From: Escherichia coli
GTDB taxonomy: Bacteria; Pseudomonadota; Gammaproteobacteria; Enterobacterales; Enterobacteriaceae
NCBI RefSeq assembly: GCF_041886205.1
Contig: NZ_CP169029.1
Reading direction: 5' to 3' (one strand)
DNA length: 64,000 nucleotides
A model generated the notes under the pieces. The model saw nothing but the letters and a program-made list of their open reading frames with translations, searched no databases and had not been told where the DNA came from. How positions within the stretch are numbered: position 1 is the stretch's first letter; each line of letters begins with the position of its first letter. The position numbers were made by a program, and so were the translations under genes. Shown one piece after another: positions 34,985-39,893 of this stretch.

Positions 34985-36334
34985 ATGTCTGAAATTGTTG
35001 TCTCCAAATTTGGCGGTACCAGCGTAGCTGATTTTGACGCCATGAACCGCAGCGCTGATATTGTGCTTTCTGATGCCAACGTGCGTTTAGTAGTCCTCTC
35101 GGCTTCTGCTGGTATCACTAATCTGCTGGTCGCTTTAGCGGAAGGGCTGGAACCTGGCGAGCGATTCGAAAAACTCGACGCAATCCGCAATATCCAGTTT
35201 GCCATTCTGGAACGTCTGCGTTACCCGAACGTTATCCGTGAAGAGATTGAACGTCTGCTGGAGAACATTACTGTTCTGGCAGAAGCGGCGGCGCTGGCAA
35301 CGTCTCCGGCGCTGACAGATGAGCTGGTCAGCCACGGCGAGCTGATGTCGACCCTGCTGTTTGTCGAAATCCTGCGCGAACGCGATGTTCAGGCACAGTG
35401 GTTTGATGTACGTAAAGTGATGCGTACCAACGACCGATTTGGTCGTGCAGAGCCAGATGTAGCCGCGCTGGCGGAACTGGCCGCGCTGCAGCTGCTCCCA
35501 CGCCTCAATGAAGGCTTAGTGATCACCCAGGGATTTATCGGTAGCGAAAATAAAGGTCGTACAACGACGCTTGGCCGTGGAGGCAGCGATTATACGGCAG
35601 CCTTGCTGGCGGAGGCTTTACACGCATCTCGTGTTGATATCTGGACCGACGTCCCGGGCATCTACACCACCGATCCACGCGTGGTTTCCGCAGCAAAACG
35701 CATTGATGAAATCGCGTTTGCCGAAGCGGCAGAGATGGCAACTTTTGGTGCAAAAGTACTGCATCCGGCAACGTTGCTACCCGCAGTACGCAGCGATATC
35801 CCGGTCTTTGTCGGCTCCAGCAAAGACCCACGCGCAGGTGGTACGCTGGTGTGCAATAAAACTGAAAATCCGCCGCTGTTCCGCGCGCTGGCGCTTCGTC
35901 GCAATCAGACTCTGCTCACTTTGCACAGCCTGAATATGCTGCATTCTCGCGGCTTCCTCGCGGAAGTTTTCGGCATCCTCGCGCGGCATAACATTTCGGT
36001 AGACTTAATCACCACGTCAGAAGTGAGCGTGGCATTAACCCTTGATACCACCGGTTCAACCTCCACTGGCGATACGTTGCTGACGCAATCTCTGCTGATG
36101 GAGCTTTCCGCACTGTGCCGGGTGGAGGTGGAAGAAGGTCTGGCGCTGGTCGCGTTGATTGGCAATGACCTGTCAAAAGCCTGCGGCGTTGGCAAAGAGG
36201 TATTCGGCGTACTGGAACCGTTCAACATTCGCATGATTTGTTATGGCGCATCCAGCCATAACCTGTGCTTCCTGGTGCCCGGCGAAGATGCCGAGCAGGT
36301 GGTGCAGAAGCTGCATTTTAATTTGTTTGAGTAA
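34985..36334 (+). CDS. lysC: Lysine-sensitive aspartokinase III
   Basis: 449-aa translation MSEIVVSKFGGTSVADFDAMNRSADIVLSD... matches LysC. Confidence 0.97.
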   Translation: MSEIVVSKFGGTSVADFDAMNRSADIVLSDANVRLVVLSASAGITNLLVALAEGLEPGERFEKLDAIRNIQFAILERLRYPNVIREEIERLLENITVLAEAAALATSPALTDELVSHGELMSTLLFVEILRERDVQAQWFDVRKVMRTNDRFGRAEPDVAALAELAALQLLPRLNEGLVITQGFIGSENKGRTTTLGRGGSDYTAALLAEALHASRVDIWTDVPGIYTTDPRVVSAAKRIDEIAFAEAAEMATFGAKVLHPATLLPAVRSDIPVFVGSSKDPRAGGTLVCNKTENPPLFRALALRRNQTLLTLHSLNMLHSRGFLAEVFGILARHNISVDLITTSEVSVALTLDTTGSTSTGDTLLTQSLLMELSALCRVEVEEGLALVALIGNDLSKACGVGKEVFGVLEPFNIRMICYGASSHNLCFLVPGEDAEQVVQKLHFNLFE

Positions 36335-36478
36335 TATTTCCCTACTGGCGTATAACGCTCACCAATTGTTATACGCCATCCTCACTGAAAATATAGATTA
36401 AATAATATCTGAAAAATAAAATCACTCCTGTAGAACAGTATTATAATCACCGAAAAATATTATTTAACAGGAGTGTTA

Positions 36479-37405
36479 ATGGCTACTTTAATGGAAAAAG
36501 ATGCACTTTTAAATGGCACCAGTCAGTGCATCGCGTTTTTATCAAATATCGTTGATAATTGCTCAGTTTCGTCACGTCAGGATTCAGGCGATGATCTCAC
36601 ACGATTAGTCAGCTATCGCGATTATCTTTACTCTACCCCCGCTGAACTTGTTGATTTTACACAGGGAAAGAGTCACCTTCAGCAGATTAGAACTCAATAT
36701 CAGCATGAATTCAACAATACTACGCATTCAGAAAATAAAGCATCTTTTGATTCTATTTGGCAGCGTCTGACAAATCATGAAGTCACACCGCAACAGCATC
36801 CCATTGGTTTTGTTTTAGGTGGGCAACCCGGAGCAGGTAAATCATCTCTGATTGAATTAGCCAAAAGAGAGACAAAAGATAATATAATGATTATTAACGG
36901 TGATGATTTTCGATTTCTACACCCTGATTTTAATTATATCTACCAAAATTATGGGGATGATTTTGTTACCCATACAGCGAAATTTTCCGGCGAAACGGTC
37001 GAACGTGCAATTGAGAGAGCGATAGTCAGTAAACTCAACATTGTTGTCGAAGGAACATTTCGTAATGCCGCTACGCCGTTACAAACATTAAAAAAACTCA
37101 AAGATGCAGGCTACCAAACAGAAGTCATGATAAAAACAACCTCAGCGGCATTAAGCTGGGAAAGCACCAATGAACGGTATAATAAGGACAAAGAGGCGGG
37201 AAATATTGCCCGAAAAGTGGATAAAAACCACCATGATATCGTCACCGGTTTGCTGGCAGAAAATGCCCGCAAGGTGTTTGCTTCGAACCTGTCAGATAAG
37301 TTTGCGGTGTATTCGCGTGAGAAGATGATATTTAGTTCACAAGCGGCAACGAATGACGATATTGCAACGCTTATACAGAATGAAATCAGCGGGAATACAC
37401 AATAA
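36479..37405 (+). CDS. Zeta-toxin-family P-loop kinase with N-terminal extension, EzeT-like
   Basis: Walker A GGQPGAGKSS and zeta-type kinase core in the C-terminal two thirds; about 100-aa N-terminal extension; AGGAG SD 6 nt before ATG 36479; AT-rich. Confidence 0.6.
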   Translation: MATLMEKDALLNGTSQCIAFLSNIVDNCSVSSRQDSGDDLTRLVSYRDYLYSTPAELVDFTQGKSHLQQIRTQYQHEFNNTTHSENKASFDSIWQRLTNHEVTPQQHPIGFVLGGQPGAGKSSLIELAKRETKDNIMIINGDDFRFLHPDFNYIYQNYGDDFVTHTAKFSGETVERAIERAIVSKLNIVVEGTFRNAATPLQTLKKLKDAGYQTEVMIKTTSAALSWESTNERYNKDKEAGNIARKVDKNHHDIVTGLLAENARKVFASNLSDKFAVYSREKMIFSSQAATNDDIATLIQNEISGNTQ

Positions 37406-37440
37406 TAATAAGAGCTGATGGCGTGAAATAACGCCGGGCA

Positions 37441-38232
37441 TCACGCCCGGCGCATTACCGTCTGGTACATTAAGCTATCCAGTTCCTTAACGTCCCCTTC
37501 TCTGCTATCCGGTAACAGCGGTGGAATTTCCCCACGCGCCAGTTCCGCACGAATAAACGCATGTAACAATGGACGGCGCGGACCATATTCCGCTTCTCCT
37601 GCGCGCTGTTTACGTCCCAGTAATTCGTCTATTTCTGCACGTAACGGCGCATCAAGTTCACTTCCCGCCAGTAGCTCAGCAAAGCGCATTGGCGGCACGC
37701 CTTTTCCCGCTTCGACCCAGCGCACGGCCAGCAGCGGACGCAGCACGTAAAAGTATTTTTTCAGTCGAACTTCATCGCCCTGCAAATATCCGCGGAAGTT
37801 TTTCTGCGCCATCGAATAGTAATGCCAGCGCGCACGCAGCGGAGAAAACCACATTGGGACCATTGCCTTAAGCGCCGTTATCGTTTCTTCATCTTGTTGA
37901 TAGACCACCGGAGAATCCAGCCATTCTATCAGCGTCGGGTTCGCGCCTTTCAATAATCCCAGCGCCTTACGCCACTCCCAACCGGAAACATCTAACTCGT
38001 CGTCGATGGGCAGCTCGATAACATCGCGCGGCGGCTCCACCCGCAGATACCATTCCAGCGGGTGAACATACAAAAACCGTACATCGTAGTCGCTGTCGGG
38101 CGAGGCAAACCCCCAGCCGCGGCTCCCGGATTCACAGGCATACAGCACTTTCACGCCGTAGCGCCGTTCTATTTCTTTTAACTGCTGCGATACCCGTTCG
38201 CGCATCGCAGCACTGACTCCATTTAATGGCAT
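37441..38232 (-). CDS. Nucleotidyltransferase-fold protein (COG3541/PF10127-like)
   Basis: Pol-beta-type NTase motif GSRGWGFASPDSDYDV; ATG 38232 with AAGGG SD, 5 nt after the upstream gene stop. Confidence 0.6.
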   Translation of the reverse strand: MPLNGVSAAMRERVSQQLKEIERRYGVKVLYACESGSRGWGFASPDSDYDVRFLYVHPLEWYLRVEPPRDVIELPIDDELDVSGWEWRKALGLLKGANPTLIEWLDSPVVYQQDEETITALKAMVPMWFSPLRARWHYYSMAQKNFRGYLQGDEVRLKKYFYVLRPLLAVRWVEAGKGVPPMRFAELLAGSELDAPLRAEIDELLGRKQRAGEAEYGPRRPLLHAFIRAELARGEIPPLLPDSREGDVKELDSLMYQTVMRRA

Positions 38233-38237
38233 GTTAC

Positions 38238-39365
38238 TCACCCTTTGATATTAACCAACCCATGCAGAACCTGATCCAGACCGCCAAATACAGAGATGTT
38301 ATCGATCCGCTCAGCCACTCTCTCCAGCGTTTCTAGCTCTTTTAAACGCAACGCTACCGGATTGTTCTCCATGACTTTGGCGGTGTTCAGTAACGAGCGC
38401 GTCGCTGCCGTTTCTTCACGTCGGCGAATCACATTCGCCTGCGCAGATTTCTCCGCCTCAACCAGCTGCGCAAGGATATTTTTCATATCGCCAGGCAGGA
38501 CGATATCTTTCACCCCTAATGAAGCAATCTCCATACCAAATGGCAACATGCGCGATTTCACCTGTTCGCTGACAACGTCATCAATGACCTGTTTATCTTC
38601 CAGCAGTTCATCCAGCGTACGAGTACCTACCGCTTCACGCAGGGCAAATTGCAATTCCCGATACAAATGATCAATCGGCTTCGTTAACTGACTAAATGCT
38701 AATAACACGTCGCTGTAGCGCCAGTTAGCCGCGAGGTTAATCCGCAGATTGACCTTATCTTTCGTTAAGATTTCTTGCCCGCTGACTTCCAGTACCTGCA
38801 AGCGGGTGTCAACCACTTCAGTTTCAACCAGATGGTTAATTTTCCAGTACGCGGTAAGCCCCGGCGGTAACAGCGCCTGCGTTTCACCATCGATTTTCAG
38901 CACGCCTACATGCCAGGCCGGAACCTGCACCGTCAGTATCGCATCGCGGCCTTTAACAACTCCTTTGCGCCGTGGCTGTAATACCGCATTCATCACCTCC
39001 GTTTGTACCGGGACTTGCTGCGTATTCATCCGCACCAGCGTCAAATCATCCTCTACACGCCAGTACAAACGACGCGTTGATGGCAGCAGGATCTCCAGCA
39101 AAATACCGTCCATATACAACGCCCCGGCTTCAGTCTCCGACAAGTCTGCCACCAGGCAATATTTCTCCACCCAATCAGGCTGAAAGCGGCGCAAATAGTC
39201 CGCCAGCACGTCGGGAACTTCGCTACCATCCAGCGTAATCAGCAACACTTCCGGGGTATTAAACCAGGGTAAAAAATGCTCGCCTGCATGTAGCACTTTG
39301 TAGTAATCGCCGTTTCTGGAGAGTAATGCCAGCTGATCTTTTCTTACGCTTATTTTTTTAATCAT
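38238..39365 (-). CDS. SPFH/band-7 (stomatin/slipin-like) domain protein
   Basis: C-terminal half has the SPFH pattern (VNLRINLAANWRY...TLDELLEDKQVI...GMEIASLGVKDIVLPGDMKNILAQLVEAEK...); no obvious N-terminal TM segment. Confidence 0.6.
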   Translation of the reverse strand: MIKKISVRKDQLALLSRNGDYYKVLHAGEHFLPWFNTPEVLLITLDGSEVPDVLADYLRRFQPDWVEKYCLVADLSETEAGALYMDGILLEILLPSTRRLYWRVEDDLTLVRMNTQQVPVQTEVMNAVLQPRRKGVVKGRDAILTVQVPAWHVGVLKIDGETQALLPPGLTAYWKINHLVETEVVDTRLQVLEVSGQEILTKDKVNLRINLAANWRYSDVLLAFSQLTKPIDHLYRELQFALREAVGTRTLDELLEDKQVIDDVVSEQVKSRMLPFGMEIASLGVKDIVLPGDMKNILAQLVEAEKSAQANVIRRREETAATRSLLNTAKVMENNPVALRLKELETLERVAERIDNISVFGGLDQVLHGLVNIKG

Positions 39366-39893
39366 TATCTATTCCTTGCTTAACAGCCGTCGCGGAAGCA
39401 GACACGAAGCGACAGGGGAATTCCCTTTTGCCTGTTACCCGGCGTCTTTATCGGCGACGTTATCGGGGATCGCTGACTGCGCAATCCCTCATTTTTTATT
39501 TAATAAGTTACAACCAGTATTCATTTCAGGAATGAATGTGGGAATCGAACCCATAATTGGCGTCAAAGGCTGACGGAACACGCCCGGAAAACAGCCTGAC
39601 CGTTCCTGGTGTGCCGACGGGGTTTAACCCCCTTTGAAATTCAGTTTCAACGCATAGGAGTTATTGCGAGAATCGTGCCAGAAGTAAAAAAAACACCTAA
39701 TCAAATGAAAAATAAAGATTTAATAAATTATTGTTTTTTATTGGGGGAAAACTTTTCGCTAAATTTGTATCTGTATTTATCATCAATTATCAAGAAAGAT
39801 AAATATTTCAGAAGAGAATAAAGGAATATTATCAGTTCTGCTTGCAAATGAATTCCCGTACACTGAATCCATCGGCTCACTGAGGGCACCATC

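Follow-up and report, generated by a model that had tools for sequence, protein, structure and literature searches.

A chromosomal allele of ezeT, encoding a probable single-polypeptide zeta-type toxin-antitoxin, downstream of lysC in Escherichia coli

EzeT and its allele in the analysed window

In zeta-type toxin-antitoxin systems, the epsilon and PezA antitoxins occlude the ATP site of the kinase. The closest characterised relative of the gene considered here is EzeT of Escherichia coli, of which the full-length protein is harmless and yields UNAG-3P at no detectable level, the truncated form EzeTΔN83 reduces viability, permeabilises the cells and leads to the accumulation of UNAG-3P, the fragment EzeT(1-82) neutralises the toxin in trans, and the toxicity is confined to temperatures below 30 °C, none being seen at 37 °C (PMC4803016; PMC4826407; PMC10532202). 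The original prediction for the present gene described EzeT as a zeta toxin autoinhibited by its own N-terminal domain, which agrees with these three reviews. The phenotypes came from EzeT constructs in expression vectors, and the promoter of EzeT was described as weak, with a conventional -10 hexamer and no -35 element (PMC4803016). Rocker and Meinhart proposed a fusion origin of the protein (PMC4826407). Their report that lysine-sensitive aspartokinase 3 adjoins EzeT in E. coli B1 strains is cited in a source that also identifies the experimentally validated 'dual TA EzeT' by the accession WP_000212693.1 (PMC10532202).

The window, which is the whole stretch of 64,000 nucleotides that was analysed (E. 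coli, assembly GCF_041886205.1, contig NZ_CP169029.1), carries at positions 36479..37405 of the plus strand an ATG-initiated open reading frame of 308 amino acids and a stop codon. The corresponding entry in the list of open reading frames opens at the GTG at 36473, six bases before the ATG at 36479 that is annotated in RefSeq. The protein is identical to RefSeq WP_000212702.1, labelled 'zeta toxin family protein' in the annotation of the identical locus of strain 6EVA. It aligns without gaps to WP_000212693.1, which has the same length of 308 amino acids, and 299 of the 308 residues are identical (97%). The reference protein is annotated in strains CFSAN061769 and O111:H8 7-54 11A, in both between lysC and a convergent nucleotidyltransferase gene. 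The gene order in the window is that of the E. coli chromosome, yjbE, pgi, lysC, the segment bearing ezeT, yjbD and rluF; lysC occupies 34985-36334 and ezeT begins at 36479, the same lysC-adjacent chromosomal position as in the reference strains. Because of the 97% identity to the validated protein and the shared locus downstream of lysC, the gene is ezeT itself, a natural chromosomal allele, which goes beyond the predicted 'EzeT-like' single-polypeptide zeta toxin-antitoxin. The finding is therefore one already known, of which the prediction had both the observation and the interpretation right. Its practical value is that of a correct annotation, as the RefSeq name is too general for a protein whose reference allele, EzeT, has been characterised as a single-chain toxin-antitoxin.

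The reading adopted here, to which a probability of about nine in ten is assigned, is that the window gene is a chromosomal ezeT allele encoding a single-polypeptide type II toxin-antitoxin, a zeta/PezT-type kinase inhibited in cis and born by fusion. According to this model, residues ~84-308 would form a zeta/PezT-type kinase that phosphorylates UDP-N-acetylglucosamine (UNAG) to UNAG-3P, as in the characterised EzeT. The product would block peptidoglycan synthesis and lead to cell lysis, again as in the characterised protein. Residues ~1-82, a predicted three-helix bundle, would inhibit the kinase in cis, perhaps by blocking the ATP site in the manner of epsilon, rendering the full-length protein harmless. 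The single-chain arrangement would have arisen when the two genes of an antitoxin-toxin operon fused, and operons of this type persist in Neisseria and other bacteria. For the window allele, the substrate, the toxicity of a ΔN83 form, the neutralisation in cis and in trans, and the activity only below ~30 °C are expected from what has been published on the reference protein, to which it is 97% identical.

The kinase domain and the fused antitoxin domain

The predicted UDP-N-acetylglucosamine kinase domain of the zeta-toxin type comprises codons 84-308 (36728..37402, plus strand). The Pfam family Zeta_toxin (PF06414) matches residues 101-282 (E = 1.5e-40), and the NCBIfam PezT model matches the protein with E = 4.6e-38. 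Among the known structures, PezT (2p5t_B) aligns with residues 80-297 (E = 5e-33) and zeta (1gvn_B) with residues 106-287 (E = 5e-27). The similarity to the zeta family, for which an alignment restricted to the P-loop had been named as the adverse outcome, thus extends over the whole kinase core, in the PezT as well as in the zeta alignment. The Walker A motif GGQPGAGKSS (P-loop, G114-S123), foreseen together with the 308-residue length of the protein, lies at 36818..36847 on the plus strand and contains K121, the counterpart of K46 of zeta.

In the alignment register to zeta, the further correspondences are D67 to D142, E100 to E175, E116 to E191, T118 to T193, R120 to R195, T128 to T203, R158 to R233 and R171 to R245; of the window residues, K121, D142, E191, T193, R195, R233 and R245 are counted among those of the active site. 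The codon of D142 (36902..36904, plus strand) aligns with Asp67 of the S. pyogenes zeta toxin (vIDnDtFk versus iINgDdFr), the catalytically important aspartate of that enzyme (PMC5923241). An alignment of 40 sequences leaves K121, D142, E191, T193, R195, R233 and R245 invariant, and T203 nearly so. Within the P-loop of the same alignment, G114, G115, Q116, P117, A119, G120 and K121 are invariant and G118 is nearly invariant. The AF2 model of the full-length protein has a pLDDT of 91 and a pTM of 0.89, the latter suggesting a fixed arrangement of the two predicted domains. In the Foldseek comparison of this model, zeta 1gvn_B superposes with an rmsd of 1.7 Å over 218 columns, and the PezT chains of 2p5t reach a TMt of ~0.8.

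Because the kinase domain differs from that of the reference EzeT by a single residue (N235S), the same chemistry, conversion of UDP-N-acetylglucosamine to UNAG-3P, is expected for the window kinase with high confidence. An alternative would be that the kinase acts on a substrate or a position other than the 3′-OH of UNAG, in the manner of ngζ1, which modifies the 4′-OH of several UDP-sugars, or of AvrRxo1, whose substrate is NAD. Such a possibility is raised by the functional diversity of Gram-negative zeta-family kinases (PMC5923241), and both AvrRxo1 and ngζ1 appear among the distant structural matches of the model (Foldseek ranks 9 and 36). However, the one kinase-domain difference separates the protein from an EzeT for which the accumulation of UNAG-3P was reported (PMC4803016), and the model is far nearer to the streptococcal zeta and PezT structures (E ~1e-14, rmsd 1.6-2.6 Å) than to the other two kinases, AvrRxo1 matching at E = 3e-4 with an rmsd above 13 Å and ngζ1 at E = 4e-3. 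A different substrate is accordingly given next to no probability.

The N-terminal cis-antitoxin domain is assigned to codons 1-83 (36479..36727, plus strand) on the basis of the AF2 models, the published boundary and the homology to free-standing antitoxins. AF2 predicts a three-helix bundle with helices at residues 4-27, 30-52 and 60-79, followed by a low-confidence linker at ~80-89. This predicted layout coincides with the boundary used experimentally, EzeT(1-82) and EzeTΔN83 (PMC4803016). An N-terminal domain ahead of the kinase core is thus present as predicted, although its size of about 100 amino acids was set too high: the antitoxin domain measures ~82 residues, and the extension 83-100 residues depending on the boundary chosen.

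A relation of this domain to the antitoxins of the streptococcal systems was sought at the level of sequence and of structure. Pfam, searched with E-values up to 10, contained no match to Epsilon_antitox or to any other family, and a profile of nine N-domain sequences gave only chance matches among all PDB sequences, none of them to epsilon or PezA. These searches thus detect no sequence link to epsilon or PezA. When the model of the N-domain alone was compared with the PDB by Foldseek, PezA (2p5t_E) was found at rank 8 with a TM of 0.54-0.59 and E = 3.2, generic helical bundles scoring equally well.

No separate antitoxin gene adjoins ezeT. The gap of 144 bp that follows the lysC stop (36334) and precedes ezeT contains, among frames of at least 20 amino acids, only one of 52 residues that overlaps the lysC end and one of 22 residues in antisense, neither of them a plausible gene, and downstream of ezeT lies the convergent nucleotidyltransferase gene. 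The predicted lack of a separate epsilon-like antitoxin gene upstream is borne out by this gap.

The same region, which is conserved with the reference EzeT strain, harbours the likely expression signals of the gene. A candidate ezeT promoter is marked by a perfect -10 hexamer TATAAT at 36442..36447 (plus strand), 31 nt before the ATG and with no recognisable -35; this agrees with the published promoter consisting of a -10 element only (PMC4803016). A Shine-Dalgarno sequence, GGAG, is located at 36470..36473 (plus strand), 5 nt before the ATG. Both elements are conserved in the reference EzeT strain and in an O145 strain. A scan for promoters and terminators returned fewer sites than the shuffled controls and missed the -10-only ezeT promoter. 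Just past the lysC stop, within island-specific sequence, a hairpin with a 12-bp stem (36346..36378, plus strand; RNA fold -15.7 kcal/mol, z = -3.8) is possibly the end of the lysC transcript, though it has no T-run.

The origin of the fused chain was approached through a search of 5.8 billion proteins. Close alleles of ezeT in Escherichia are 88-92% identical, and full-length homologues were found in Pseudocitrobacter (59% identity) and on one metagenomic contig (37%). A large number of relatives, from Neisseria and other Neisseriaceae, consist of the kinase only, at ~45% identity, without the N-domain and with a C-terminal extension of ~75 amino acids. In three independent contexts, an open reading frame of 79-86 amino acids ends 1-10 nt before such a kinase-only gene: in N. 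wadsworthii (L012 4753-5891), in Neisseria sp. 83E34, and on a plasmid-like contig (L015) with ParA and resolvase genes. The products of these upstream frames start with MCTLMQKDALI and contain the motif R(D/S/R)(Y/F)LY...E(D/N)I(D/P)(F/Y). Their alignment with the N-domain of EzeT (MATLMEKDALL ... RDYLYSTPAELVDF) has a BLASTP E-value of 1e-7, and the resulting family of nine sequences shares eleven invariant positions, M1, T3, L4, M5, K7, D8, L10, A19, R47, L50 and Y51.

The N-domain of EzeT is homologous to these free-standing proteins, and the homology gives direct sequence support to the fusion origin. The two-gene pairs of Neisseria and the plasmid-like contig likely represent the unfused, ancestral arrangement. 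This direct evidence from sequence for the descent of the EzeT N-domain from a free-standing antitoxin is a modest addition to what is found in the reviews. A phage or plasmid origin of ezeT was also considered and rejected: ezeT has no close phage homologue, the close matches labelled 'plasmid' are mislabelled E. coli records of chromosome size, and true plasmids contain only kinases that are ~40% identical.

Genomic context, probable allelic exchange and gene loss

In the window, the interval between lysC and yjbD contains a segment of 3,429 bp (36335..39763) that is absent from K-12, where BLASTN of the lysC-yjbD region against the window finds 122 unrelated bp in its place. Beside ezeT, the segment includes two genes on the minus strand. 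The first is a nucleotidyltransferase gene of the RlaP type (37441..38241; Pfam RlaP PF10127, E = 3.4e-95; 54.7% GC), convergent with ezeT. The second, which lies upstream of the nucleotidyltransferase gene with a 4-bp overlap, is an SPFH/Band 7 (slipin) gene (38238..39365; PF01145, E = 8.9e-27; 50.2% GC). As predicted, ezeT is AT-rich, with 40.3% GC and a GC3 of 35%, compared with 54.5% GC for lysC and a GC3 of ~56% for the SPFH-nucleotidyltransferase pair. Among the 5426 complete genomes of E. coli, 1433 have the gene, in every case as a single chromosomal copy, and ~74% are without it. The pair occurs in 1631 genomes, ~200 more than ezeT, and at least 80% of the whole 3,429-bp segment is found in 1424.

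These numbers bear on the possibility that ezeT is no self-contained toxin-antitoxin but one part of a three-gene system with the SPFH/slipin and RlaP-type genes, such as a module that responds to membrane stress or phages by releasing the toxin. All three genes share one 3.4-kb segment missing from K-12, and in E. coli ezeT is nearly always accompanied by the pair (1433 genomes with ezeT, 1424 with at least 80% of the segment). Several observations speak against a three-gene system. First, ezeT and the pair are transcribed towards each other and therefore belong to different operons, and the GC3 of ezeT, 35%, departs sharply from that of its neighbours. Second, roughly 200 genomes keep the pair with a phage-tail cluster in the slot of ezeT; in the two that were inspected, MS6198 and EC9, phage-tail genes replace ezeT between lysC and the nucleotidyltransferase gene. 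Third, the Pseudocitrobacter homologue (59%) sits between unrelated HEAT-repeat and HD-domain genes, and the two-gene relatives of Neisseria and the plasmid-like contigs lack such neighbours. In addition, no model of PADLOC-DB 2.0 matches the SPFH or the nucleotidyltransferase neighbour, ezeT itself being matched only marginally and over a short stretch (E = 0.0029), and the published phenotypes were obtained from constructs of EzeT (PMC4803016). A three-gene system thus carries very little probability.

The segment is a composite mosaic, because ezeT and the pair differ in GC content and other E. coli carry the pair without ezeT. The predicted insertion of 3.5 kb is accordingly recovered as one K-12-absent segment of 3,429 bp, although it is no single shared unit in terms of GC and occurrence. 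From the unrelated neighbours in Pseudocitrobacter, the convergent orientation and the missing PADLOC matches of the neighbours, it is concluded that ezeT forms an autonomous module, adjacent to the pair by position only.

The interval between lysC and the nucleotidyltransferase gene of MS6198 is filled by a cluster of ~16 kb with genes for a Mor activator, holin, transglycosylase, sheath, tube, tape measure, baseplate and fibre, and in its whole length no capsid or replication genes are annotated. That ezeT can be separated from the SPFH-nucleotidyltransferase pair, its site being taken by a phage-tail cluster in other genomes, again adds modestly to the reviews. One may speculate that the site downstream of lysC is a hotspot of cargo exchange, where ezeT and a tailocin-like cluster of ~16 kb alternate beside a resident pair. 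EzeT would then be a cold-active module of suicide, abortive infection or competition, its trigger acting on a fast-diverging, recombining antitoxin domain of which different alleles answer different triggers. This scenario as a whole is regarded as unlikely.

The differences between the window allele and the reference EzeT are unevenly distributed along the gene. Eight of the nine substitutions fall into the antitoxin domain (T14A, V25I, R33H, D39A, T41K, S65I, H66L and I70V, with the window residue first), so that residues 1-83 are ~90% identical to the reference N-domain. At the nucleotide level, 16 of the 19 differences lie within codons 12-70, including those responsible for the eight amino-acid changes. 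The synonymous divergence in codons 12-70 amounts to 0.169, ~12 times the value of 0.014 in the rest of the gene. The estimates of omega, 0.25 for the antitoxin part and 0.14 for the kinase part, the latter based on only three differences, indicate purifying selection on both domains. Since the synonymous differences cluster along with the amino-acid changes, the patch of codons 12-70 is best read as the product of intragenic recombination with a more distant allele, in preference to relaxed selection. For the same reason, decay or rapid adaptation of the antitoxin domain, with a faster evolution of its protein sequence, was rejected. The concentration of allelic differences in the antitoxin domain through what appears to be recombination is a further modest addition to the reviews. 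With eight of the nine substitutions in this domain, the tightness of the cis-inhibition could differ between the window allele and the reference.

The gene is also subject to loss. It is a frameshifted pseudogene in the O145 strain RM8995-C1 and is interrupted by IS1 in the strains nearest to the window, PT62 and LP5-1; given these cases and its absence from ~74% of the complete E. coli genomes, ezeT is dispensable. The same observations could describe a decaying remnant, a once-mobile toxin-antitoxin that is now inert in the window strain and only looks intact, and the restriction of the published toxicity to temperatures below 30 °C, together with the weak promoter (PMC4803016), would fit such a description. 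Against it stand the full-length open reading frame, in which all catalytic and antitoxin motif residues are kept, the omega values of both domains (with the stated limit of the kinase estimate), and the conserved -10 hexamer and Shine-Dalgarno sequence. A remnant is therefore considered improbable, and an intact ezeT allele is preferred.

Comparison with known zeta-type systems

The window protein shares with the reference EzeT (WP_000212693.1; Rocker and Meinhart 2015, Mol Microbiol 97:589) the two-domain architecture, the locus, the -10 hexamer and the Shine-Dalgarno sequence. The window allele differs by nine amino-acid substitutions, of which N235S is the only one in the kinase domain.

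The PezAT system of Streptococcus pneumoniae and the epsilon/zeta system (pSM19035, S. pyogenes) have a homologous kinase fold and active site and follow the same logic of inhibition, in which a small helical antitoxin silences the kinase. In these systems, however, the antitoxin has a gene of its own upstream of the toxin gene, and PezA bears in addition a repressor domain of the HTH type, whereas the antitoxin of the window protein is covalently fused to the kinase. The N-domain also differs from epsilon and PezA in having no detectable sequence similarity to them, and its resemblance to PezA in structure does not reach significance.

The two-gene pairs of Neisseria (N. wadsworthii) and the plasmid-like contig are related through both partners: the kinase is ~45% identical, and the upstream protein shares the motifs MxTLMxKDxL and R..LY with the N-domain. 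Unlike EzeT, they consist of two genes, and their kinases bear the C-terminal extension of ~75 amino acids, which is absent from EzeT. The ngε1/ngζ1 system of Neisseria gonorrhoeae likewise contains a UDP-sugar kinase toxin of the zeta family in a Gram-negative host, yet it is only a distant structural match to the window protein (6eph_B, E = 4e-3). Its toxin phosphorylates the 4′-OH of several UDP-sugars, and its antitoxin has a fold unrelated to epsilon (PMC5923241).

Occupancy of the site downstream of lysC

The interval between lysC and the nucleotidyltransferase gene, in which ezeT (36479-37405, + strand) resides, is occupied by a phage-tail gene cluster in approximately 200 E. coli genomes in which the SPFH-NTase pair is retained; the slot was inspected in strains MS6198 and EC9. 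In MS6198 (locus L008, 738-16453; NZ_CP015834.1 4662737-4678452), this cluster spans about 16 kb and encodes a Mor activator, a holin, a lytic transglycosylase and the sheath, tube, tape measure, baseplate and tail fibre proteins; the same slot carries phage-tail genes in EC9 (L007). No capsid or replication genes are annotated within the MS6198 cluster, which resembles a tailocin or a defective Mu/P2-like prophage. The site downstream of lysC can accordingly be empty, hold ezeT or hold the tail cluster, which makes at least three states.

Of 5426 E. coli genomes, 1631 carry the SPFH-NTase pair itself (37441-39365 in the window, − strand). The SPFH/slipin product has 375 aa, and the RlaP-family nucleotidyltransferase has 266 aa according to the open reading frame (263 aa in RefSeq). 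With a 4-bp overlap, the two genes have the appearance of an operon. No PADLOC model matched either product, and no NCBIfam model matched the nucleotidyltransferase.

Within the island-specific sequence, 12 nt past the lysC stop codon, is a hairpin with a 12-bp stem, GGCGTATAACGC...GTTATACGCC (36346-36378; −15.7 kcal/mol, z = −3.8), which is accompanied by no T-run. The K-12 sequence differs at this site, and therefore the lysC transcripts of the island-carrying strains end on different DNA. Another local difference from K-12 concerns yjbD and rluF, which directly adjoin in the window (40166/40167); K-12 (L005, 3228-3359) holds about 132 bp of extra sequence between them, with no match to the window.

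Variation and disruption of the ezeT alleles

The nucleotide differences between the window allele and the reference ezeT are concentrated in codons 12-70 (36512-36688), where 16 of the 19 are found, synonymous and non-synonymous alike. The dS value reaches 0.169 in this segment, against 0.014 in the remaining gene, a pattern suggestive of an intragenic recombination tract that does not extend beyond the antitoxin domain. A more divergent allele, annotated as a frameshifted pseudogene, occurs in E. coli O145 RM8995-C1 (L004, 4001-4929), with 88.9% nucleotide identity; the 80-90% identity band to which it belongs includes 46 genomes.

In strains PT62 (L018, 389-2003; NZ_CP090448.1) and LP5-1, the island is 100% identical to that of the window, and the 5′ end of ezeT carries an IS1. 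The RefSeq annotation is then of a 'zeta toxin family protein' of 291 aa, missing the first ~17 residues and, with them, the invariant antitoxin motif MATLMEKDAL.

The 90%-identity protein cluster containing the exact window EzeT is represented by a 449-aa protein and combines LysC with zeta-toxin entries, probably a clustering artefact of merged lysC-ezeT gene calls. Cluster-level names are thus unreliable for this protein.

Two-gene relatives of ezeT

Relatives of ezeT organized as two genes are found in Neisseria and plasmid-like sequences (L012, N. wadsworthii, 4753-5891; L013, 4738-5891; L015, a plasmid-like contig, 2752-4041; L017, 2761-3894), and these pairs are apparently uncharacterised. 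The N. wadsworthii pair is flanked by toxin-antitoxin gene pairs, of the PrlF/YhaV type on one side and the RHH/ParE type on the other. The small protein encoded upstream in the two-gene pairs is homologous to the N-terminal domain of EzeT. The kinases possess a C-terminal extension of ~75 aa, which EzeT lacks; in most of them its last residues form a conserved (I/M/P)(D/E)R motif.
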